Below, in pieces: positions 2,621-32,480 of a stretch of DNA of 37,528 nucleotides (positions within the stretch are counted from its first letter, which is position 1; every line of letters starts with the position of its first letter). The position numbers were made by a program, and so were the translations under genes. This DNA comes from a virus (Duplodnaviria > Heunggongvirae > Uroviricota > Caudoviricetes): the IMG/VR virus record IMGVR_UViG_2541047697_000003. One strand, 5' to 3'. Under the pieces are notes generated by a model, which worked only from the letters and a program-made list of their open reading frames with translations, was not told the origin of the DNA and ran no database searches.

Positions 2621-2732
2621 AACTGAAGTTGCCCTGAAAATGAAATTTTTTTGCACAACCGCAGAACTTTTCCGCAGGGCATCAGTCTTAATTAGTGCCA
2701 CTGCTTTTCTTTGATGTCCCCATTTTGTGGAG

Positions 2733-2776
2733 CCCATCAACCCCGCCATTTCGGTTCAAGGTTGATGGGTTTTTTG
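2733..2776 (+). terminator. putative intrinsic terminator downstream of ybjL, near the prophage left junction
   Basis: 10-bp stem cccatcaacc / ggttgatggg followed by tttttt; the loop is long (about 17 nt), so confidence is moderate. Confidence 0.4.
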
Positions 2777-2855
2777 TTGCCTGAAATTTAAGCTGTTTAA
2801 AATCATGATGTTAGAAACACTGTTTTTTAACGATGGCGACAAAATGGCGGCAGCG

Positions 2856-3074
2856 TCAAAGAGAGAGCGCCACCTGTCCTGATTTCATTGGATGCGGCTG
2901 AACCGGATTTGACTCTTTTGGCGTTGCAATCGAACGAACAAAAGTTTCATGGGTAACAAAAGTATGGCTGCAGTTAATGTTCTGGCACTGGTTGTAACGC
3001 TCTTTGGTCAATGAAGATACCTGAAAACTGCTGCGAGTATGGGCGGCACTTCCACACAGTGGGCAAATCATCAT
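2856..3074 (-). CDS. ogr: Ogr/B-family zinc-finger late transcription activator
   Basis: 72 aa from the ATG at 3074 (track start is an upstream GTG); CPLCG...CQNINC Cys4 pattern and overall similarity to P2 Ogr / 186 B (MMICPLCGSAAHTRSS...TKERYNQCQNINCSHTF). Confidence 0.8.
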   Translation of the reverse strand: MMICPLCGSAAHTRSSFQVSSLTKERYNQCQNINCSHTFVTHETFVRSIATPKESNPVQPHPMKSGQVALSL

Positions 3075-3164
3075 TTTTCGAGTTCTCCCCATTTTTGCTA
3101 AATTCACAATAATGATACCGCATTATTCCATTTTGCAAACTTAAAAGTTCTCCATTGCGAAGAA

Positions 3165-4265
3165 TCATTCCATTTCGAAATCATCAATCCTCACTTCAAG
3201 CTCCAGACTGGTTGTAAAACCGTTATCGGGGCTGACGGTATGCGTCAGAGTCGTAATGGTCCATTCCGCATCATCTATCGGCTGTTTAAAGCCACTGACC
3301 TTCACAGGCATTTCTGTGTAGAGATCTGCCCGCCCTTCCGCCAGTTGTAGCGAGAATGATGCAACGCCGCGTTGCAGGCGTTCCCACTGCATTTTCGCTG
3401 CCCGTTCAGCGTTGCTTCGGTTGGCATAAGTGCGATTAAGTACCAGCACGTTTTCATCCGTACCCACCAGGTAATCGCCCTGCTTCGCTTCTGGCTCTTT
3501 CTTCTGCTTCTTAGTTCTGCGCTTACGCTTCACCGTGGTGCTTTCTTTCTTCGCGGGTTCGCGGGTATGCAACCAGCTGGCAATTACGCCCGTGTAGGCT
3601 CCGCGATCTGCCAGGGTAAAGCGGTGACTGTCGCCGTCCTTGCGTGTGATAGTGATCACCGGCAGTGGTTTACCAGTGGCGCTTTTGCCCTGTCCCTGCC
3701 GGATGAATAACAGATTGCCATTTTTCACCGACGCGATGGCACCGTACTGGCGCGCCAGCCGCATCAGAAAACTGCCGTCACTCTCATTAGTCTGGTCTAT
3801 ATGCTCCACGGGCTTATCCGACAGGTCTTTACCCAGTGCCATCTTCAGCTTGTGACGCGCGGCTATTTCCTTCACCACTTCCCCGACAGTGGTCTTGTGC
3901 CACGATTTTTCACGGCGGGTATTCAGCGTTTCCCTAAAATCAGCACTTCGCGCCCGGATAGTCAGGCGATCCGGTGCGCCAGTGTGTTCAATCTCGTCCA
4001 CCGTGAATGCCCCTTTCGGGAAAAGCGGCTGCCCCTTCCAGCCCAGCGCCAGCGTGATGACCGCACCACGGCGCGGCAGCACGATTTTTCCGTCGGCGTC
4101 GTCCAGTTCCAGATCAAGCTGGTCTGCTTCAAAGCCCCGATTGTCCGTCAGCGTCAGACTCATCAGGCGGTTATCCAGCACAGTGGTGATATCCTTTCCC
4201 TCAATACTGATGCTGAATGCGGGAGTTTTGTTGCCTTTGTTAAGCAGTTCAGAGCTGAAATTCAC
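3165..4265 (-). CDS. D: tail protein gpD-like
   Basis: 366-aa ORF immediately after U in P2 order; GTG start overlaps the U stop (GTGA). Confidence 0.75.
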   Translation of the reverse strand: MNFSSELLNKGNKTPAFSISIEGKDITTVLDNRLMSLTLTDNRGFEADQLDLELDDADGKIVLPRRGAVITLALGWKGQPLFPKGAFTVDEIEHTGAPDRLTIRARSADFRETLNTRREKSWHKTTVGEVVKEIAARHKLKMALGKDLSDKPVEHIDQTNESDGSFLMRLARQYGAIASVKNGNLLFIRQGQGKSATGKPLPVITITRKDGDSHRFTLADRGAYTGVIASWLHTREPAKKESTTVKRKRRTKKQKKEPEAKQGDYLVGTDENVLVLNRTYANRSNAERAAKMQWERLQRGVASFSLQLAEGRADLYTEMPVKVSGFKQPIDDAEWTITTLTHTVSPDNGFTTSLELEVRIDDFEME

Positions 4266-20063: not shown

Positions 20064-20714
20064 TCAGCGGCTGTCATTGCGCAGTCTGCGCTCCAGCTGC
20101 TGTTTGTCTTTTTTCACGCCACAGCGGGGATCGAGCTGTAACGCATGGTTGAGATGATTAAGGGCGGAAGCCGGATTGCTTTCACTCAGGACAGCGCCAA
20201 TCGCTTTATGCAGACGCGCCCGTGACTGGTCCGGCATATCCAGACCGTCTGTCAGCTCCAGTGTCTGCAGCAACAGATCGGCATCAAAGCCGGTGGCGGC
20301 AAGCATTGCGCTCTGCGCGGCGTCTGCCATTTCCTCTGCCAGCACGGTCTGCACGTTGCGGTTACCCAGCGGCATCACCCAGCCATGACGCAGGGCATGA
20401 CGCCCGATCTCCAGCGCCCCGGCATAATCTCCGGCATCAATGCGCCACAGCATCACGTACATCAGCACGTCATCCTGTTGAGCGCCTCCGACAGCCAGGA
20501 CACCCTCTGCCCAGGCGGCGTACTTCGGCAGCAGCTCCACCTTGATTTCCGCTTTTTTGACCGTGGACTGAACGCCCTTGAGACGGCGGCGGTCTTCCGC
20601 CAGTTGCAGCAGCATCAGGTCATAGCCCGACGTGTGGCGAACGCTGCCGCCCTCGCGGGCGGCCTGTTCAGCCTGAACGCGCAGGCGATGCTGCCGTGCG
20701 GGACTCAGGCTCAT
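20064..20714 (-). CDS. M: terminase small (endonuclease) subunit gpM-like
   Basis: 216-aa ORF following N in the O-N-M-L block. Confidence 0.8.
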   Translation of the reverse strand: MSLSPARQHRLRVQAEQAAREGGSVRHTSGYDLMLLQLAEDRRRLKGVQSTVKKAEIKVELLPKYAAWAEGVLAVGGAQQDDVLMYVMLWRIDAGDYAGALEIGRHALRHGWVMPLGNRNVQTVLAEEMADAAQSAMLAATGFDADLLLQTLELTDGLDMPDQSRARLHKAIGAVLSESNPASALNHLNHALQLDPRCGVKKDKQQLERRLRNDSR

Positions 20715-22768: not shown

Positions 22769-24535
22769 ATGAACACCACACTGACACCCGCAGATCTCGA
22801 TCCCCGTCGGCAGGCCATGCTGCTGTACTTTCAGGGATACCGCGTAGCCCGCATTGCTGAAATGCTGGGCGAGAAAGTTGCAACCGTTCACAGCTGGAAA
22901 AAACGCGACAAGTGGGGTGACTATGGGCCGCTGGATCAGATGCAGCTCACCACCGCCGCACGCTACTGCCAGCTCATTATGAAGGAGCACAAAGAAGGGA
23001 AAGATTTCAAAGAGATTGACCTGCTGGCGCGCCAGTCTGAGCGCCACGCGCGGATCGGCAAGTTTAACAATGGCGGCAACGAAGCCGACTTAAATCCTAA
23101 CGTCGCCAACCGCAACAAAGGCCCGCGCCGTCAGCCGGAAAAAAATGTCTTCACCGATGAACAGATTGAGAAGCTGGAAGAAATCTTCCATTCCTCCATG
23201 TTCAACTACCAGCGCCACTGGTGGGAAGCCGGAAAAACCAACCGCATCCGCAACCTGCTGAAGTCACGCCAGATCGGCGCGACCTTTTACTTTGCCCGTG
23301 AAGCCCTGATTGACGCCCTGCTTACCGGGCGTAACCAGATTTTCCTTTCCGCCAGTAAGGCACAGGCCCACGTCTTTAAGCAGTACATCATCGACTTCGC
23401 CAAAGAAGTGGAGGTGGAGCTGAAAGGCGATCCGATGGTGCTTCCTAACGGGGCCACGCTTTACTTCCTCGGCACCAATGCCCGCACGGCCCAGAGTTAT
23501 CACGGCAACCTGTATCTGGATGAATATTTCTGGATACCGAAATTTCAGGAGCTACGCAAAGTGGCTTCCGGTATGGCTATTCACAAGAAATGGCGGCAGA
23601 CCTATTTTTCCACACCATCCAGTCTGACCCACAGTGCTTATCCGTTCTGGTCCGGTGCGCTGTTCAACCGTGGGCGCAACAAAGCTGACAAGGTGGACAT
23701 CGACCTGTCCCACAGCAATCTGGCCCCCGGCCTGCTGTGCGCAGACGGGCAATACCGCCAGATAGTCACCGTGGAAGATGCGGTGCGCGGCGGCTGTAAC
23801 CTGTTCGACCTCGACCAGTTGCGCATGGAGTACAGCCCGGACGAATACCAGAACCTGCTGATGTGTGAGTTCGTGGACGATCTCGCGTCCGTGTTCCCGC
23901 TCAGCGAGCTGCAGGCGTGCATGGTGGACAGCTGGGAAGTATGGACCGACTTTCATGCACTGGCGCTGCGCCCGTTTGGCTGGCGCGAAGTGTGGATCGG
24001 TTATGACCCGGCAAAAGGTACGCAGAACGGCGACAGCGCCGGATGCGTGGTGGTGGCACCGCCAGCCGTGCCGGGCGGTAAGTTCCGCATTCTTGAGCGT
24101 CACCAGTGGCGCGGGATGGACTTCCGCGCCCAGGCTGACGCCATCAAAAAACTGACCGAACAGTATAACGTGACCTATATCGGCATCGACTCGACCGGCG
24201 TCGGTCACGGGGTTTACGAGAACGTGAAAGCATTTTTTCCTGCCGTCAGGGAGTTTGTCTACAACCCCAACGTTAAAAACGCCCTGGTACTCAAGGCCTA
24301 CGACATTATCAGCCACCGCCGTCTGGAGTTTGACGCCGGGCACACCGACATTGCGCAGTCATTTATGGCAATCCGTCGCGCCACCACTGCCAGTGGCAAC
24401 CGCCCGACCTATGAAGCCAGCCGCAGCGAAGAAGCCAGCCATGCCGATCTGGCCTGGGCAACAATGCACGCACTGTTTAACGAACCGCTGCAGGGCGAGT
24501 CCGCCAATACCAGCAATATTGTGGAGATTTTTTGA
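22769..24535 (+). CDS. P: terminase large (ATPase) subunit gpP-like
   Basis: 588-aa ORF with an ATG start, divergent from O. Confidence 0.9.
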   Translation: MNTTLTPADLDPRRQAMLLYFQGYRVARIAEMLGEKVATVHSWKKRDKWGDYGPLDQMQLTTAARYCQLIMKEHKEGKDFKEIDLLARQSERHARIGKFNNGGNEADLNPNVANRNKGPRRQPEKNVFTDEQIEKLEEIFHSSMFNYQRHWWEAGKTNRIRNLLKSRQIGATFYFAREALIDALLTGRNQIFLSASKAQAHVFKQYIIDFAKEVEVELKGDPMVLPNGATLYFLGTNARTAQSYHGNLYLDEYFWIPKFQELRKVASGMAIHKKWRQTYFSTPSSLTHSAYPFWSGALFNRGRNKADKVDIDLSHSNLAPGLLCADGQYRQIVTVEDAVRGGCNLFDLDQLRMEYSPDEYQNLLMCEFVDDLASVFPLSELQACMVDSWEVWTDFHALALRPFGWREVWIGYDPAKGTQNGDSAGCVVVAPPAVPGGKFRILERHQWRGMDFRAQADAIKKLTEQYNVTYIGIDSTGVGHGVYENVKAFFPAVREFVYNPNVKNALVLKAYDIISHRRLEFDAGHTDIAQSFMAIRRATTASGNRPTYEASRSEEASHADLAWATMHALFNEPLQGESANTSNIVEIF

Positions 24536-25563
24536 TGGGAAAGAGTAAGAAAAAACGCGCTGCGGCGACGAATCAGATCCAGCATAAAAACCAAACTTCA
24601 GCCGAAGCATTCAGCTTCGGTGATCCCGTTCCTGTTCTGGACCGCCGCGAACTGCTGGACTATGTGGAATGCGTACAGATGGACCGTTGGTATGAGCCAC
24701 CAGTGAGTTTCGACGGCCTGGCGCGAACCTTCCGCGCCGCCGTACACCACAGCTCACCGATTGCAGTAAAGTGCAACATTCTGACCAGCACCTATATCCC
24801 TCACCCGTTGCTCAGCCAGCAGGCTTTTTCACGTTTTGTGCAGGACTATCTGGTATTTGGTAACGCCTACCTGGAGAAACGCACGAACCGCTTCGGTGAA
24901 GTTATCGCCCTTGAACCTGCCCTGGCAAAATACACTCGACGCGGATTAGACCTGGATACCTACTGGTTTGTGCAATACGGTATGGCAACCCAGCCGTATC
25001 AGTTCACGAAAGGCAGCATCTTTCATCTGATGGAACCGGATATTAATCAGGAGATCTACGGCCTGCCTGGCTATCTTTCTGCTATTCCATCCGCTCTGCT
25101 CAACGAGTCCGCCACGCTGTTCCGCCGGAAGTATTACATTAACGGTAGTCATGCAGGCTTCATCATGTACATGACCGATGCCGCGCAGAACCAGGAGGAT
25201 GTGAACAACCTCCGCAATGCGATGAAAAGCGCCAAAGGCCCTGGCAACTTCCGCAATCTGTTTATGTACTCGCCTAATGGTAAAAAAGACGGACTTCAGA
25301 TTATCCCGTTGTCAGAAGTCGCAGCGAAGGATGAGTTTCTGAATATCAAAAACGTGAGCCGTGATGACATGATGGCTGCGCATCGTGTTCCGCCACAGAT
25401 GATGGGGATTATGCCGAATAATGTTGGGGGGTTTGGGGATGTGGAAAAAGCGAGTTTAGTGTTTGTGAGGAATGAATTATTGCCATTGCAAAAAAGGATG
25501 ATGGAACTAAATAAATGGTTAGGCCATGAAATTTTGAAATTTGAGACATATATACTTAGCTAA
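24535..25563 (+). CDS. Q: portal protein gpQ-like
   Basis: 342 aa from the ATG that overlaps the P stop (ATGA). Confidence 0.9.
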   Translation: MGKSKKKRAAATNQIQHKNQTSAEAFSFGDPVPVLDRRELLDYVECVQMDRWYEPPVSFDGLARTFRAAVHHSSPIAVKCNILTSTYIPHPLLSQQAFSRFVQDYLVFGNAYLEKRTNRFGEVIALEPALAKYTRRGLDLDTYWFVQYGMATQPYQFTKGSIFHLMEPDINQEIYGLPGYLSAIPSALLNESATLFRRKYYINGSHAGFIMYMTDAAQNQEDVNNLRNAMKSAKGPGNFRNLFMYSPNGKKDGLQIIPLSEVAAKDEFLNIKNVSRDDMMAAHRVPPQMMGIMPNNVGGFGDVEKASLVFVRNELLPLQKRMMELNKWLGHEILKFETYILS

Positions 25564-25632
25564 TCGCCATTTTTTAAAAGCCACGCCAATAATTAATATT
25601 AGAACCGTGGCTTTAATTTAGAGCATTAGATA

Positions 25633-26718
25633 CTAACGTTTCAACCAAAGGTCATCTACAGAAAACGAATCGAATTCATTCTCAGATGGAGAATAAATAA
25701 AGCTCACTGTAAAATACGGTCTAACCAAAATCTCTAAAGTCACAACGTCACCATCACCATGAGTAAATGGGAATGCCGAATCTAAATCGCTTTTATTTTC
25801 AATATAATCCAAATAAGGAATATCCACTTCAATAAAAACCCGTCTCAAATTAAAAGAATAGGCAATGTAATATTTATCCGCATCAATTGAAGTGATGCCT
25901 TCAATATAGCCATCCTCGAAATCTTCGATGACATCAACTCTAACATCCAAAACATTCGAAACTCTAGACTCAAAAATATTATTTTCAAGGTATTGACTAA
26001 GCATCATGTGATTAAAACTTGATAAATAATCGATACACTCACCTTCTAGAAACTCCTCGAAATAAGGCTCACTTCTTGCATGATCAAAAGCATGGATACT
26101 CTTATCAATAGATGATGTAACGAAGTCAAATAGCTTCCGATATGGAGTTATTTTTTGTGTTATGCCTAACTCTTCAATATCTCTTAGAAGATCATCATTA
26201 AACGTTGCAGGACCTTTACTGTTGGTAAAAAAGTCTGAGCTATTCTCAGTAATAAATACAAAATCATCATTACCCCCTGATGATTTGATATATTGAAGAA
26301 AAGATAACCAGATCAACGTATCACGGTATCCTTTTTCTTGTTCTGAGAAAGGTTTTATCTTTTCAAGGGCCCTACCAACCACCTTAGCATGTGGAATATC
26401 GTTATAATCTATTAAAATTAAATTATCAACTTCCTTATTTAATATTTCTTTCAAATCATATTGTTCAATACCTAAGTTTTCAATTTTAAAATCTATTGGA
26501 TTCTGATTAAGCTTTTTAATTTTACTAATAATGGAACGCATTTCATTTAATTGATTTTTGAGCTCTCTATTCCTGATATTGTTAGTCTCCTCAATTACTA
26601 AATTTGATAATAACAAGTCGTTACATTCATTATTCAAAAAATGGAAAAGAAGTTTAAAATTAGCATTTTTAGCAAACCAATTATTGTAAAATATATTTGT
26701 ATCCAAAAAAACTTTCAT
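25633..26718 (-). CDS. AT-rich cargo protein with an N-terminal PIN-like motif (function unknown)
   Basis: 361-aa ORF with an ATG start; N-terminus MKVFLDTNIFYNNW resembles the first acidic strand of PIN-fold nucleases; lies between Q and the putative cos. Confidence 0.7.
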   Translation of the reverse strand: MKVFLDTNIFYNNWFAKNANFKLLFHFLNNECNDLLLSNLVIEETNNIRNRELKNQLNEMRSIISKIKKLNQNPIDFKIENLGIEQYDLKEILNKEVDNLILIDYNDIPHAKVVGRALEKIKPFSEQEKGYRDTLIWLSFLQYIKSSGGNDDFVFITENSSDFFTNSKGPATFNDDLLRDIEELGITQKITPYRKLFDFVTSSIDKSIHAFDHARSEPYFEEFLEGECIDYLSSFNHMMLSQYLENNIFESRVSNVLDVRVDVIEDFEDGYIEGITSIDADKYYIAYSFNLRRVFIEVDIPYLDYIENKSDLDSAFPFTHGDGDVVTLEILVRPYFTVSFIYSPSENEFDSFSVDDLWLKR

Positions 26719-26935
26719 CTGTCTTTTCCAGTGATGTAGTTAATAACATAGGTAATTATAAATTGAATTGTAGGCCGGATCCACTGATAGTGGATCCGGT
26801 TTAAAAGATTGCATTTATGGCAATGTCAAGTATAAAAACAACCACAACATAATGATTGTATATCCAAAGGCCGTCAGTAAATCATAGCAATTATCACTTA
26901 CAGGGGATGTGCGATTTTAATCGTTCAGCCGCGCG

Positions 26936-26954
26936 CTCATATCCCCGCCACGCC
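26936..26954 (-). other. putative cos (cohesive-end) site
   Basis: Minus-strand GGCGTGGCGGGGATATGAG followed by GCGCGCGGCTGAACG, resembling the P2/186 cohesive-end sequence as remembered (GGCG-A/T-GGCGGGGAAAGCA...); reads toward Q as in P2. Confidence 0.45.
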
Positions 26955-27240
26955 TGCCCGCTTTATGTAGCGGTTTTCATGCAGGTGCATGATCTACGCA
27001 AAATCCCACCAGTTCTGGCGGGCCTTAGCAAAAACGATCCGCAAACGATCATGCGATCTCATGCGGCATAGTCATGCACTTACGGGGGAACTGAAATCCA
27101 GTAACCGAATGATCGCTTGAAAAACGAAACATACGTACTTACAAAGCACAAAGCCTGCTTTGAGCGAAGCGGACGTTAATAATGTTGCTGACCATCCCTA
27201 GTACTTCTCATAATATAGCCCTATGTTAATCAACAAAATA

Positions 27241-29133
27241 TTAATTTGTCCCATCACTAAAGAATTTGATTGCGTCAGTTAGTACATAGTCAATGAAAAT
27301 TTTTACGTGAAAGACCTGAAAAACGCTATTTTCTGAGTTTTGAATGAAATCTACAGCTATATCTTTTAGGTTGATCAACCAGTTATATTCTTCAATCAGT
27401 CTAGTTCTGGCATCCGCATCAGAATAACGACTCCGTAAGCTAAATGCCAGTTTCCTCATGATAACTGGATCAAGTTTCCTATAGCTTTCAATGAAAACAT
27501 CAGCAGGAACTAAGTGTAAAAAAGGTACGTCATGAAGATTTAACTGTCTATTATTAGAATGACTCAATTCAGATAACAACGATGATTTTCCCCTTTGTAA
27601 CTCATCTCTGAACTGCAATGCAAATTCCGAAATTGATTCATCAAACCGTTTCTTCCTTGCTATTTTAATATGTTCAATAATGAGCTTAAAGTCATCACTA
27701 TCCCTGTCAAGAAAACTTAAACTACGCCATCCCCTTAATTCGTTATAATGCGTTTGCGCATATTCCTTATGTACATCTTCAGCTCTCAGTCTATTATAAT
27801 AATTATTTATATTCTGTTTTGTCTCATTTATGAGATCATGAACATCATCTGTTGTTAGACCTTCTTTCGCCATTTCCAGCAAAATACTCGCTGTCATCAG
27901 GAGTTCACCTAAGGTAGTGATCTTACCTGAAAATAGGTTATCCTTAGCAATAGCGTACTGCTCATAAAGCATAGTTTCATTTAGTTCTCTATAGTTCCAC
28001 AAACACCTCCATGCTGGTGAATCGCTGCTTCTAAAAAAACGCGTAACATCCAACTGAGCAAGAAGATCACCCGTTACCTTTCCATCACAGATTAGTTCTC
28101 TCCAAGACGCGCCATCCAGTAACTTCTCGGTTAATACAGGAGACGAATATTTCTCGACAATCATGTCATACTTACTTTTGACGCGTTCTTTACCCAAAAA
28201 CATACCATAATTAACATTGCCGATTGAATTGAAATCCTCGTAGCTAAGATTCCCTCCCCGGTACTCCATCGAAAAAATTAACAATTGATGAAAAAACACC
28301 CTTATAAATTCATCGTTACTTAAATATTTATCTCCCAAAAGGGAAATAATTCGTTGTACATCGAGAAAGAACTGCCTCAAGTGTCTTAGATTATTATAAT
28401 TCGCTGACACATAGAGGTCCTCTATTGTCTGCATATCTTCTTTAAATATATTAGCAACATGCAAACTACTAATTACGTTCAAGAAAATCTTACAAGCACT
28501 ATGTAAATCTGACGTTACTTCAAATGTTTTACCTACTAGCTTTTCTTTTGTTCTCATGTATTCATTGCGATATTTCTCATCATCATTATTTATTCGCTTT
28601 TCTCTATTGATTATTTCATCTTCATTGGCAACCAAGATCGCTTTGTATCCGTTTACTTCCACAAAGTGATTTATATATCCAAATAAGATTGGTAAATCTA
28701 CACCAGCTCTCTCGACATCATCAAAGACCAGCACAAAACCATCTGGTTTTCTAGTAAAGTCGCTAAGATTAATGGTGGGAACATTGCTATTGATATCTAC
28801 GTCAGATTTATTATCGCCATTAAGATCGATCTTGAAAGTAGCCTTAAGCGTATTTTTTAGTACATTTGCACCAAAGATAAGGGCTTTGTTTGATAGGACA
28901 GGATGCAATTGACGATAGAACTCATCTTCAATCTGCTCAATAGAGTTGACGCCATACAAGCTCACTTTTAGAAATTTGAACTCTGAATGTTTCTGCTTAT
29001 ATTCTTCAAGAACTCGTTCAATGAACCAAGTTTTACCTGATCCCCAAGCACCTTTAAGCATAATGGCGTATTGAGGTTCAGTTTTAAGGCTAAGGTAATA
29101 TTCTATATAGTCTTTGATGTACGTATTGTGCAT
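27241..29133 (-). CDS. AT-rich cargo P-loop NTPase with a KAP-type Walker A (function unknown)
   Basis: 630 aa from the ATG at 29133 (track start is TTG at 29184); Walker A LKGAWGSGKTWF and Walker B-like FVLVFDDVER; long helical C-terminal region. Confidence 0.7.
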   Translation of the reverse strand: MHNTYIKDYIEYYLSLKTEPQYAIMLKGAWGSGKTWFIERVLEEYKQKHSEFKFLKVSLYGVNSIEQIEDEFYRQLHPVLSNKALIFGANVLKNTLKATFKIDLNGDNKSDVDINSNVPTINLSDFTRKPDGFVLVFDDVERAGVDLPILFGYINHFVEVNGYKAILVANEDEIINREKRINNDDEKYRNEYMRTKEKLVGKTFEVTSDLHSACKIFLNVISSLHVANIFKEDMQTIEDLYVSANYNNLRHLRQFFLDVQRIISLLGDKYLSNDEFIRVFFHQLLIFSMEYRGGNLSYEDFNSIGNVNYGMFLGKERVKSKYDMIVEKYSSPVLTEKLLDGASWRELICDGKVTGDLLAQLDVTRFFRSSDSPAWRCLWNYRELNETMLYEQYAIAKDNLFSGKITTLGELLMTASILLEMAKEGLTTDDVHDLINETKQNINNYYNRLRAEDVHKEYAQTHYNELRGWRSLSFLDRDSDDFKLIIEHIKIARKKRFDESISEFALQFRDELQRGKSSLLSELSHSNNRQLNLHDVPFLHLVPADVFIESYRKLDPVIMRKLAFSLRSRYSDADARTRLIEEYNWLINLKDIAVDFIQNSENSVFQVFHVKIFIDYVLTDAIKFFSDGTN

Positions 29134-29454
29134 TTTTAGTCCATTTTTATAAAATACATAAACATAGATGGTAAGTAGAGCCAAAGGCCAACTATGGAAA
29201 ATTCAATCGGTAGTGTACATTGTAAGGTTATTATTGGTAAATATTATAGGAATACCCATAATCTTACAAAATTCAGATTATCCGTTGCAAATTAGTCTGC
29301 TATTCGTTAATTGACGAAAGATAGCAGAAGAAATGTTCGCTTCTGGCACAAAGCGGACGATCACTTATAAAAATGACCGCCCACCTTACGCCTTATTTCA
29401 CTCATTGCCCAAACTAGCCCCCATCAGAGTGAATCCTCCTGGGGGCAACATTTC

Positions 29455-30039: not shown

Positions 30040-30396
30040 TTAATACAGGTTCCGCCACTTATCATCTTCCTGCAAACGCTGGTTCCGATAGAAGATACGC
30101 AGGCCTGCTCCTGACGGAATACTGCCGCCGCGAAGGAGTAAATCGACCTCTTTCTCGCTACCATCAAATCCTCTGGACTTCAGTTCATAGGCGAGCTGCT
30201 GTCGCTGATGGTCTGTAATTCGCTGTTTGTAGTCTTTACGCCGTTTCGGTTTCACCAGGCGTAACCTTGCTGCCAGTTCCCGGCGCTCTTTTTTGCTCAT
30301 ACTGTGCAGGTAATCGTGCAACTCCTTGTCATCCATGCGGGTGATATCCGTTCTGGTATCCCCATCAGCTGATTTGTCTTTCCCTTGTTGGTTCAA
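30040..30396 (-). CDS. hypothetical basic protein downstream of A
   Basis: 118-aa ORF from a TTG (internal ATGs at 30336 and 30300); no clear RBS; highly charged. Confidence 0.35.
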
Positions 30397-32480
30397 ATTT
30401 TCAGCAAGGGGACAGTTATTGCCACGAGTCCAAGGGGACAGTTATTGCCACGAGTCCAAGGGGCGCAAGCGCCCTGGTCGGCTGCCGCCTCCTGAACGTC
30501 AACGGCCTTACGAACCATTTTCCACTTCACTGCATGAGTGCAGATTTTGCCCTCTGCAATGGGTGACCAGATGCCATAAATACGAATGCCGTGATCGCCA
30601 TAGGCGGTCGGCTCTTCGTTGATTTCATAAGCGGTTCTGATGAGGTGATATTTACGGGGAACCAGTACGCCGCCCTGCTTCATGATGTAGGTGGCAAAAC
30701 AACCAGCATCAGCTGCAGCCAGAATGGCATCAAGGCGCGGGTTATCCAGTACCGGCGCACCTGCTTTTTTGTCACCCTGTTGCCTTGCCACCTGACCAGC
30801 CAGCAATCGCAGTTCACGGTAAGCCTGACGCCCCGGAATGCCAAAGAAGCGGAATTGCTGAACACGATGCAGAGACGCCCAGGCATTAACGTATTCAGCG
30901 TTATCACGCAGAGATTTACCCGTTTCCTTGCTGATCTCGCCAGCCAGACCACGCCCGTCAATGTTCTTACTGATGTATTTCGCGATGTAGCTTGTCGGCG
31001 TTCCTTTGCGCGGGTTTATCAGCTCAGATTTAAAGCGTGGACCAGTGTTATTACCCAGTTCCTCGCGGTCTTCACGGATGGCAAACTTACGCAACAATGC
31101 AGTAATGGCGCGGCGGTCTTTTTTGCGCATGAAACACAACAGGTGCCAGTGAACTGTACCGTCATGATGCGGCTCAGCCACCCGCACGCCATACCAGCGC
31201 AACCCGGCTTTGTGCATCGCCTTACGAAATGCAGCAAACATGCCGACCAGATAATCGCTGCTTTGTCTTACCGTCGCATTTGTCCAGGTTGGGTTTGGTC
31301 TGCCGTTATTGAGCGTGGAATGGAAACGTGACGGACAGGTAATGGTGTAGAAAACGGCGCAGTCACCGCGCATTTCCGCGATAAGCTCCAGACCTTTAAC
31401 ACAGGCCATCATCTCATTGCGGCGGTGCGCCGGGTTGCTGCTGCTGGCGTTTACCACGTCTTCCATATCCAGCGTGTCGCCCTCTTCGTTCACCAGTTCA
31501 TGAGAACGGAAAAACTCCAGTGACTTGCGGCGCTGCTCACGTTTATGCATCACGGCTTCATAGCTGACATAGGGAGATGCTTTTTTGCTGACCAGGCAGA
31601 CAGCACGCAACTGCTCTTCCCGCCATTCGCAACGCATTTTCCATAATTTCCGGTACCACCAGTCGGCGCACAACATACGCGCCAGCGAACCCGGAATGAG
31701 TTCATAGGGCACGGGTTTACGGCGGTTTCTTTTCCGACGGAGTTGCTCAAACGCAGGCGGGATGACATCCAGACGCAGGGTTTCCGCTGCCACCTTTTCC
31801 CATGTCTTGCGGATTTCTTCTGGCTTAACGTCATCGGTGGCATACAAATCACCACAAGCTGCATCAAGGCACATGCTCATATGCGCAGCGACAAGGGTAG
31901 ACAGGCGTTTCACCTGATCCTGACTCATTTCAGGCAGAATCAGCAGGCCGTCCAGCCCTACATGGCTTGCCATAAAACGAAAAGATGCAGATAGCTGGCT
32001 GTCGCGTACATGCTCCAGTCGTTCCAGACATGGCTTAATCGTCTCACGTAAATAGCGGGAATAAGCCTTTGGCCTGCCCAGGCTGTTAAAGTATTCAATA
32101 CGTTGCATCAGCGGCTTGCTGATATGGGAGGGCTGGGCGCTGACGTCTGCCAGAATGACCATGTCCGGGTTAAAACGCTGCTGCTCATGCGCCAACTTTG
32201 CCCGGCTAATGAGCTTATCCTGCTCTATTTCGCGTTGGACAGGATCACGGGATTCATTAAAGAAATAACGCTCCCAGACCTGATCACTCAGTGCCTCGCG
32301 GCGCAGTTGTTCCTGCTCGTTATCGGCAGCGTACAGAGTGATCAGGTTTGAAAGCGCAGAAACCGGCGCAACTTCCGCCGGGTCCAGATAAGGGTTAATG
32401 GCCTTTTTCGGGCTGTTCCATGAGAACGATGCGGCAGCCTCGTTAAAGCCGCAGCAGTTGCTCATATCGGCATGGCTCAT
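30393..32480 (-). CDS. A: replication initiation endonuclease gpA-like (rolling-circle, HUH-Y family)
   Basis: 695-aa ORF; HWHLL (HUH-like) and SYIAKYISK tyrosine motifs; ATG overlaps the dam stop. Confidence 0.9.
30405..30474. repeat. tandem direct repeat (2 x 26 bp plus a partial third copy) followed by a 14-bp palindrome, inside the 3' end of gene A
   Basis: caaggggacagttattgccacgagtc at 30405-30430 and 30431-30456, then caagggg; then gggcgc-aa-gcgccc at 30461-30474. Confidence 0.8.

Follow-up and report, generated by a model that had tools for sequence, protein, structure and literature searches.

What is the short non-coding interval that separates two different cargo genes in the prophage recorded as IMGVR_UViG_2541047697_000003 (IMG/VR; Caudoviricetes)? 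The stretch analysed, hereafter the window, comprises 37,528 nucleotides of one strand and holds a P2/186/Fels-2-like prophage that is reversed relative to the P2 map. A first-pass annotation, made from the letters alone, had proposed that the minus strand between a PIN-like gene and a KAP-family P-loop NTPase gene resembles the cohesive-end region of P2 and 186. Our results indicate that 26929-27079 is the cohesive-end packaging (cos) site of a P2/186/Fels-2-type prophage, with a probability that we put at about 0.9. The identification itself is known biology, a typical member of a well-characterised class. What we add is modest: a sharp map of the site from -125 to +26 relative to the predicted top-strand nick, and the finding that cos splits an accessory-gene hotspot into two independently assorting slots.

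We examined the 19-mer GGCGTGGCGGGGATATGAG, which lies on the minus strand at 26954-26936, is directly preceded by AAAACCGCTACATAAAGCGGGCA and is followed by CGCGCGGCTGAACG. It has the form of the P2-family (Peduoviridae) cos, a 19-nt cohesive end starting GGCG(A/T)GGCGGGG. With one mismatch allowed, GGCGNGGCGGGGA occurred once in the window; shuffled sequences gave a mean of 0.12 matches, with at least one match in 12 of 100 shuffles. Taken alone, so short a motif is only mildly unlikely to occur by chance, and the case for cos therefore rests on homology. Reference cos sequences were assembled by joining the right and left ends of each record. The joined ends of 186 read TCATGCAACTGCATTAAAACCGACCCATAAAGTGGGCA / GGCGTGGCGGGGAAAGCAT / TGCGCGC and those of P2 AAGGTGCATTAAAACCGCCCCGTGAAGCGGGCG / GGCGAGGCGGGGAAAGCAC / TGCGCGC, and the window in the same alignment reads TCATGCACCTGCATGAAAACCGCTACATAAAGCGGGCA / GGCGTGGCGGGGATATGAG / CGCGCGG. 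The results showed no gaps against either phage, and the match extends to the 29 nt that precede the 19-mer and to the GCGCG that follows. The 19-mer was identical at 15/19 positions to 186 cos 1-19, at 14/19 to P2 cosL and at 18/19 to the putative cos published for the Salmonella phage SEN8, ggcgtggcggggatacgag, which differs by a single base and was assigned by annotation (PMC5427200). The P2 (NC_001895) and 186 (NC_001317) records give the cohesive end as positions 1-19, with Q/W starting near 190, while the SEN8, PSP3 and EtG records all finish on the base that aligns to 26955.

The first-pass annotation had named alignment to peduovirus cos sequences as a check on the likeness it saw, and gap-free alignment to the annotated sites of both 186 and P2 bears that likeness out. 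Its transcript of the 19-mer region was exact except for one extra G after the hyphen. The interval it gave, 26761-27071, does contain cos, but the conserved block runs 8 bp further, to 27079, and the lower ~170 bp (26761-26928) are the leader of the PIN cassette and not cos. A 71-amino-acid (aa) open reading frame (ORF) across cos, 26856-27071, was rejected as spurious because it starts in cassette-specific sequence and continues through the non-coding cos; Pfam and PHROG returned no match for it. Searching Rfam with the region, and with the full window at gathering score, revealed no RNA family at either cos or the hairpin described below, and the sole match in the window was RybB, in the host flank.

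Homology was also found beyond the reference phages. In an alignment made here, P2 and P4 match over 29 + 19 + 7 = 55 bases, which we take to be the 55-bp P2/P4 cos core, a concept of Ziermann & Calendar 1990 as cited in passages of PMC5694545 and PMC3931495; the limits used here are those of our alignment, not of the original paper. The window carries this core around the predicted cut sites without gaps (Table 1), with identity of about 42/55 to P2 and 44/55 to 186 by hand count from the alignment rows. By blastn, a 151-bp block (26930-27080) showed 88-95% identity to the same intergenic position in Fels-2-like phages, among them Fels-2, SopEPhi, RE2010, SEN8 and many Klebsiella and E. coli P2-like phages. 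One related record, L008 (NC_049342, Escherichia phage 500465-1), has a cohesive end one G short (GGCGT-GCGGGG) at about 3620-3650. Because the same record has split portal and terminase genes and an insertion sequence (IS), sequencing errors or a defective prophage are suggested there.

We then considered the position of the block within the prophage. On one side it has the right-end accessory region, which follows A/tum, and on the other the portal gene, in the order gpA, DinI, KAP, cos, PIN, Q, P, and the same element encodes a cognate P2-type gpM and gpP terminase and a portal. From this gene order the GGCG strand reads toward Q, as in the NC_001895 and NC_001317 records, so that the orientation proposed at first pass holds. 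It had also been proposed that the PIN-like and KAP genes are adjacent in the prophage and lie at opposite packaged ends; the two genes do flank cos and, since cos lies between them, they would sit at the left and right packaged ends, respectively. By homology to P2 and 186, after excision and replication the terminase gpM/gpP, whose genes are about 2.4-6.9 kb away, would recognise the cos block and bind the repeat array on the right-end side. Two nicks 19 nt apart are predicted, at 26955/26954 on the minus strand and 26936/26935 on the plus strand, and these would leave the 5' overhangs GGCGTGGCGGGGATATGAG at the left end and its complement, CTCATATCCCCGCCACGCC, at the right end. P2-type terminase reportedly uses monomeric circles and not concatemers. 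The linear virion genome would begin with PIN_12, Q and P and end with gpA, DinI and the KAP NTPase, and after injection its ends would anneal and be ligated, re-joining PIN and KAP. Locating cos in this way fixes the ends of the packaged genome and its gene order.

The limits of the site were read from its relatives. An exact-pattern scan of IMG/VR yielded at least 120 contigs with this cos subtype, of which the 106 with full flanks were analysed; positions +1 to +25 were fixed by the search pattern. Majority-base conservation was 0.85-0.98 from -125 to -1 and dropped to random level (about 0.35) past -126 on one side and past +27 on the other, and GCGCG(C), at +21 to +26, was all that was conserved on the left-end side. 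Because conservation is confined to -125..+26, the functional unit corresponds to 26929-27079 of the window, nearly all of it on the right-end side. The block is also a GC-normal island, with a GC fraction of about 0.53 against 0.23-0.36 in the PIN cassette and 0.30-0.43 in the KAP cassette. These limits amount to a natural deletion map of the ~150 bp that the terminase requires and could help in designing a minimal cos cassette for P2/P4-based transducing particles. An example of a dead cos, as opposed to the intact block of the window, was seen in L018 (2600-3003; JGI metagenome contig Ga0496116_0002458), a decayed P2-like prophage with an IS insertion and gene fragments. Its cos remnant comprises a short nick-proximal right-end stretch, the 19-mer and GCGCG, fused to a gpA fragment.

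Several points weigh against the identification. The window has T at +16, where all 106 relatives have C, and G at +26, where 87 of the 106 have C; both positions are variable across the wider family in a stack of 17 cos regions (below), and the T at +16 is common to seven other assemblies with the same PIN cassette. Our literature search found no experimentally determined virion ends for this element or for the GATACGAG subtype, in which assignments are by analogy only. The roles given below to the TGCAT repeats, stem-loops and half-sites have conservation as their sole basis. Finally, gpA is frameshifted in the window, so that it is not assured that the prophage replicates and packages on its own, and this copy may be defective.

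The gpA region (30040-32480, minus strand) contains a perfect 26-bp tandem duplication at 30405-30463 that is absent from three relatives (L010, L011 and L013), the 26-bp unit being present in 2.3 copies in the window and 1.3 copies in each of these. The duplication leaves a 695-aa ORF (30393-32480) and a displaced 118-aa ORF (30040-30396), compared with 804 aa in the relatives. The frameshift may make this copy replication-defective, or it may reflect an assembly error at this place. The cos could then be intact in sequence and yet unusable by this prophage alone, since the truncated gpA would provide no circular or rolling-circle substrate after induction. Such a defect would be compatible with the identification of cos, as it concerns activity and not identity. 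The truncation from 804 to 695 aa speaks for it, but we regard it as a real though rather unlikely possibility: all other morphogenetic, lysis and regulatory genes that were checked have family-typical lengths, the duplication could be an artefact of assembly or sequencing or could revert through slippage, the absent C-terminal ~110 aa of gpA may be dispensable, and the cos block shows no decay, in contrast to that of L018.

To describe the anatomy of the block, we used the top-strand nick as anchor for a stack of 17 diverse cos regions, from Peduoviridae and P4-like elements. The results showed a common architecture. Its distal part consists of three TGCAT(G) repeats at about -124 to -95 and a GC-rich stem-loop at about -70 to -45. 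Its proximal part has an inverted TGCAT pair plus AAAA at -38 to -20 and then AAAGCGGGCA up to the nick, past which come GGCGtGGCGGGG, 7 variable bases and GCGCGC. Every one of these elements is present in the window. A half-site consensus GCG[GC]GC[AG] stands outside both predicted nicks and gives the site near two-fold symmetry; these GCG(G/C)GC(A/G) half-sites are likely the nuclease recognition elements. The proximal consensus TCATGCA..TGCAT.AAAA was found in P2-like and P4-like cos regions alike, and the three distal repeats in P2, 186, P4, ENT90, a Yersinia phage and Fels-2 types. GCATGA is concentrated here, with 5 of the window's 27 copies within 26977-27077 (101 bp). Together, the three distal and two proximal TGCAT repeats likely form a terminase-binding array, within which the distal GCATGA cluster is a candidate binding array for the terminase small subunit.

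Two further repeats were seen around this block. In the Aeromonas phage LPM4 (L028), GGATC-containing repeats replace the TGCAT repeats at -140 to -90 from cos. The window has both motifs, with GATCG...GGATCG after the TGCAT array at 27030-27050, and GGATC may be a second recognition motif. A 13-nt direct repeat, CACTTAC(A/G)GGGGA (12/13 identical), brackets the cos block at 26895-26907 and 27077-27089, one copy within the PIN leader and the other across the -125 boundary. By a rough estimate about 0.15 such pairs are expected by chance per 700 nt; the repeat is probably a chance occurrence, and it could be a recombination microhomology.

The two stem-loops of the block allow another explanation of its conservation. 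The small nick-proximal one is kept as AAAAcCgc..CatAAAGCGGGCA in the 17 cos regions and is terminator-like on the plus strand (fold energy -13 kcal/mol, z -2.6). The GC-rich stem holds a constant position in 13 diverse cos regions, with compensatory double changes in 6 of 10 pairs, and we infer that it is probably a terminator of rightward tum/KAP transcription as well as a fixed-position cos element. The 150-bp island might thus be kept mainly as a transcriptional boundary, made of terminators or insulators, between the early and accessory genes and the late P-Q operon, with its cos likeness incidental. Both stem-loops (27022-27005 on the minus strand and 26958-26973 on the plus strand) would suit this, as would ENT90, where the GC-rich stem is followed by a T8 run. 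We nevertheless consider it extremely unlikely, because conservation in the 106-locus columns is highest in the 19-mer and its immediate flanks and not in the stems, in P2 and 186 this very block makes up the annotated ends of the genome, and P4 has the block only through its use of the P2 terminase, as stated in a passage of PMC9122126. Moreover, terminator and cos roles are not mutually exclusive.

The first-pass annotation had also pointed to a perfect hairpin with an 11-bp stem between the PIN start and cos, and we confirmed it at 26775-26799. Its fold energy is -24.2 kcal/mol on the plus strand and -19.8 on the minus strand (z-scores near -6), and no other perfect inverted repeat with close spacing reaches 11 bp in the 37.5-kb window. 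The hairpin lies within the 211-bp leader of the PIN cassette and is identical in all loci with this PIN gene, whatever lies across cos. It was absent from the other cos regions compared, close relatives with the same cos block included, and an exact-match scan of viral contigs found it only alongside the same PIN cassette. Because it travels with the cassette and is missing from other cos regions, we conclude from this distribution that the hairpin is cassette-borne and not part of cos.

A packaging function, for example as a left-end element like cosB, had to be weighed all the same, since the hairpin is by far the strongest local structure and is separated by 137 bp from the predicted bottom-strand nick, on the side of the first gene. 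Its absence from every other cos region examined, its strict association with the PIN cassette and the background level of conservation from +30 onward in the 106 loci make such a function very improbable. In L018, the sole diverged cassette (PIN 91% identical), the hairpin carries three uncompensated changes, in keeping with the local background rate; these count against the packaging function too, and the hairpin was rejected as a conserved structure. It was likewise rejected as a canonical Rho-independent terminator, defined here by a GC-rich stem and, after it, a tract with 5 or more T per 8 nt: its tails, TTTAAAAG on the plus strand and CCTACAAT on the minus strand, have no T-run, and neither strand was listed in the scan.

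Regulation of the PIN cassette offers a further explanation. A perfect TATAAT just downstream, at 26760-26755, is a putative PIN promoter element, which places the 3' arm of the palindrome at the -35 position and is the only hint of a regulatory role. The hairpin could be an operator that overlaps the PIN promoter's -35, or a non-canonical insulator that blocks read-through from cos, and it accompanies the cassette in seven independent assemblies with three different right-side partners. Against this, there is no T-run on either strand, the structure is not kept in L018, and homologous PIN genes in four other loci (L020 and L021-L023) have unrelated upstream regions. The AlphaFold model of the PIN protein has no helix-turn-helix, so that self-regulation through the palindrome is unsupported and the idea that the protein binds DNA as its own regulator was rejected; nor is a separate regulator encoded in the cassette. 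On balance, regulation of PIN is a tentative possibility, and we lean somewhat against it.

Returning to cos itself, we compared the genes on its two sides. In pairwise comparisons the left slot extended from 26929 to about 25500, and the right slot from about 27080-27146 to about 29340-29445. The identical PIN protein stands across cos from KAP in L011-L013 and L015, from CdiI_2 + RNAse_A_bac in L014 and from DUF8087 in L016, and the same KAP cassette stands across cos from RES in KE47, from SIR2 + ParA in SFE8 and from a hypothetical gene in NC101 and others. Across 107 loci there were 79 left-flank clusters and 51 right-flank clusters, in 100 combinations. The left slot (cos-Q) was filled in 76 of 85 loci, with a median of 1.7 kb (1.37 kb in the window), and the right slot (DinI-cos) in 56 of 79 (2.5 kb in the window). 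The gpA-gpQ interval thus varies in gene content between similar prophages, and this subtype normally has cargo to both sides of cos, which is no peculiarity of the window. Because everything beyond -125 and +26 is free to vary, cos acts as a fixed anchor between two independently exchanging accessory slots. Gene acquisition between cosL and Q has been described before (Dodd & Egan 1996 and Nakayama 1999, as cited in a passage of PMC5694545), and parts of Rousset et al. 2022 (PMC9122126) and of NAR 2026 (PMC13586616) present and revisit the cos-proximal gpA-gpQ defence hotspot of P2-like phages.

The cos core might also serve, beyond its packaging role, as a recombination anchor that itself divides this defence hotspot into two slots that assort independently of each other. 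The left slot joins the block at +26 in over 100 loci, 7 bp away from the predicted bottom-strand nick, as would be expected if terminase-cut or freshly injected cohesive ends started cassette exchange between co-resident P2-like elements; the second crossover would then lie in Q or in A/tum. A passage of Rousset et al. 2022 (PMC9122126) raises cohesive-end recombination as a speculation, with no test in that passage. We think such a role unlikely.

The cargo proteins were examined for possible functions. The KAP NTPase matches the PADLOC defence candidate PDC-S49 (E 9e-157) and phrog_4740, and its true start is likely 29133 (630 aa), a length also called in L011-L013. It is a candidate anti-phage protein; the relevant part of PMC13586616 reports anti-phage activity for 'Reve', a single-gene KAP-domain system from P4 hotspots. 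The PIN_12 protein, a candidate single-gene defence protein, had no match in PADLOC 2.0, PHROGs or NCBIfam and no sequence relatives in the PDB. Its AlphaFold model (predicted local distance difference test score, 92.7) shows a VapC-like PIN domain and a beta-rich C-terminal domain, with weak fold matches (VapC at E 1e-3; NTF2-like). At the DNA level neither complete E. coli genomes nor the phage collection had a match to the PIN cassette, and the search for PIN relatives in genome contigs gave one distant, uninformative locus. PIN_12 genes of 361 aa recur beside cos: a 65% identical copy lies in the cos-Q interval of the P2-like phage L020, and 54% identical copies lie about 255 bp downstream of the P4-type cos GGCGGGGCGGGGAGAGCAT in the P4-like satellites L021-L023 (source annotation, Enterobacter cloacae). 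The PIN_12 family is widespread in Proteobacteria. That PIN_12 and KAP genes occupy both cos-flanking slots of a known P2-type hotspot gives context for judging defence candidates, and our findings leave the current understanding of this phage family unchanged.

Two other places in the window deserve mention. Between the convergent Q and PIN genes, 25577-25614 reads AAAGCCACG-(20 nt)-CGTGGCTTT with T and A runs on both sides (by eye), a possible bidirectional terminator. On the ogr side the prophage ends next to rybB, and the attachment site is therefore likely to overlap the 3' end of rybB or to lie beside it. The features are collected in Table 1.

Table 1. Features of the predicted cos site, its flanking cassettes and the wider prophage, in window coordinates
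Feature	Position	Strand	Basis or remark
Conserved block read as cos (-125 to +26 relative to predicted top-strand nick)	26929..27079	-	106-locus conservation; blastn
Predicted 19-nt 5' cohesive end GGCGTGGCGGGGATATGAG	26936..26954	-	Ungapped alignment to 186, P2, SEN8
Equivalent of 55-base P2/P4 stretch, TGCATGAAAACCGCTACATAAAGCGGGCA / 19-mer / CGCGCGG	26929..26983	-	P2/P4 alignment
Top-strand half-site GCGGGCA, directly 5' of predicted nick	26955..26961	-	17-region stack, 106-locus column counts
Symmetric partner CCGCGCG, directly 5' of predicted bottom-strand nick	26929-26935	+	Same stack and counts
Nick-proximal small stem-loop CCGC-TACATAAA-GCGG, AAAA before	26958..26973	-	17-region conservation
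Proximal inverted TGCAT pair TCATGCA-CC-TGCATGA	26977..26992	-	Stack consensus, GCATGA matches
GC-rich stem-loop CCCGCCA-GAAC-TGGTGGG, then ATTTTG	27005..27022	-	Terminator-like score; fixed position
Three direct GCATGA repeats, spacing 13 and 10 nt	27049..27077	-	Motif scan, stack
Perfect palindrome CCGGATCCACT-GAT-AGTGGATCCGG, 11-bp stem, 3-nt loop	26775..26799	.	PIN cassette leader
Perfect TATAAT hexamer, 37 nt upstream of PIN ATG	26755..26760	-	Read from sequence; kept in L018
Left-end cargo PIN_12 (DUF4935), 361 aa, cos-to-Q direction	25633..26718	-	PF16289, E 2.3e-27
Right-end cargo KAP-family P-loop NTPase, toward cos	27241..29184	-	PF07693
Portal Q (P2 Q homologue), toward cos	24532..25563	+	PF04860; layout as in P2 and 186 records
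Terminase large subunit gpP (P2 P homologue)	22769..24535	+	PF06056, PF03237, PF17289
N and O	between gpM and gpP
Terminase small subunit gpM (P2 M homologue)	20064..20714	-	PF05944, E 7e-40
ogr	2856-3107		Followed by tail and head genes
rybB small RNA, full length	2700-2778	+	Rfam RF00110, 105 bits
ybjL-like transporter gene, host flank	935-2620		Gene list
DinI/tum, gpA, 186-type CI repressor, integrase	beyond KAP gene

Compared with known systems, the predicted site is close to the cos of 186 (NC_001317, positions 1-19 plus the terminal ~125 bp of the right end). The first 13 nt of the cohesive end, GGCGTGGCGGGGA, are identical. On the right-end side both have TCATGCA..CTGCAT.AAAACCG...CATAAAG.GGGCA before the nick, and GCGCG follows the 19-mer. 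The three distal TGCAT repeats and a CGCCAG..CTGGCG stem-loop lie at equal distances, and the orientation toward the portal gene is the same. The two differ in the last 6 nt of the overhang (TATGAG versus AAGCAT) and in their surroundings, as the cos-portal interval of 186 is gene-free (about 195 bp with the terminator tW) and the other side of its cos carries orf97 instead of a KAP NTPase. With the P2/P4 cos the window has in common the TGCAT repeats, half-sites that lie outside the two nicks and, by homology, the geometry of a 19-nt 5' overhang, whereas it has T and not A at overhang position 5 and its overhang departs from that of P2 in the 3' third. In P2 the right-end side holds old + tin, which are transcribed away from cos, and the left-end side is empty.

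The cos of Fels-2, SEN8 and RE2010 (Felsduovirus and related E. coli and Klebsiella prophages) is of the same subtype as that of the window and likewise has accessory genes on both sides, although the window has T for C at +16 and G for C at +26. The cargo of these phages differs from PIN_12 + KAP: SEN8 has an HNH-endonuclease and a hypothetical gene, Fels-2 a gene for a 565-aa hypothetical protein, 813R9 Hypoth_Ymh, 500465-1 TIR and KE47 RES. The lambda cos (cosQ-cosN-cosB) is alike in principle, with a sequence-specific staggered terminase nick that leaves 5' cohesive ends, near two-fold symmetry at the nicks and an adjacent repeat array as the presumed small-subunit binding site. It shows no sequence similarity, its overhang is 12 nt instead of the 19 nt predicted here, and its repeat array lies on the left-end side, whereas that of the window is on the right-end side. 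Finally, the locus is that of the gpA-gpQ hotspot, with the same rapid cargo turnover between conserved A/tum and Q; the passages of PMC9122126 and PMC13586616 on this subject describe one hotspot, whereas here cos splits it in two.

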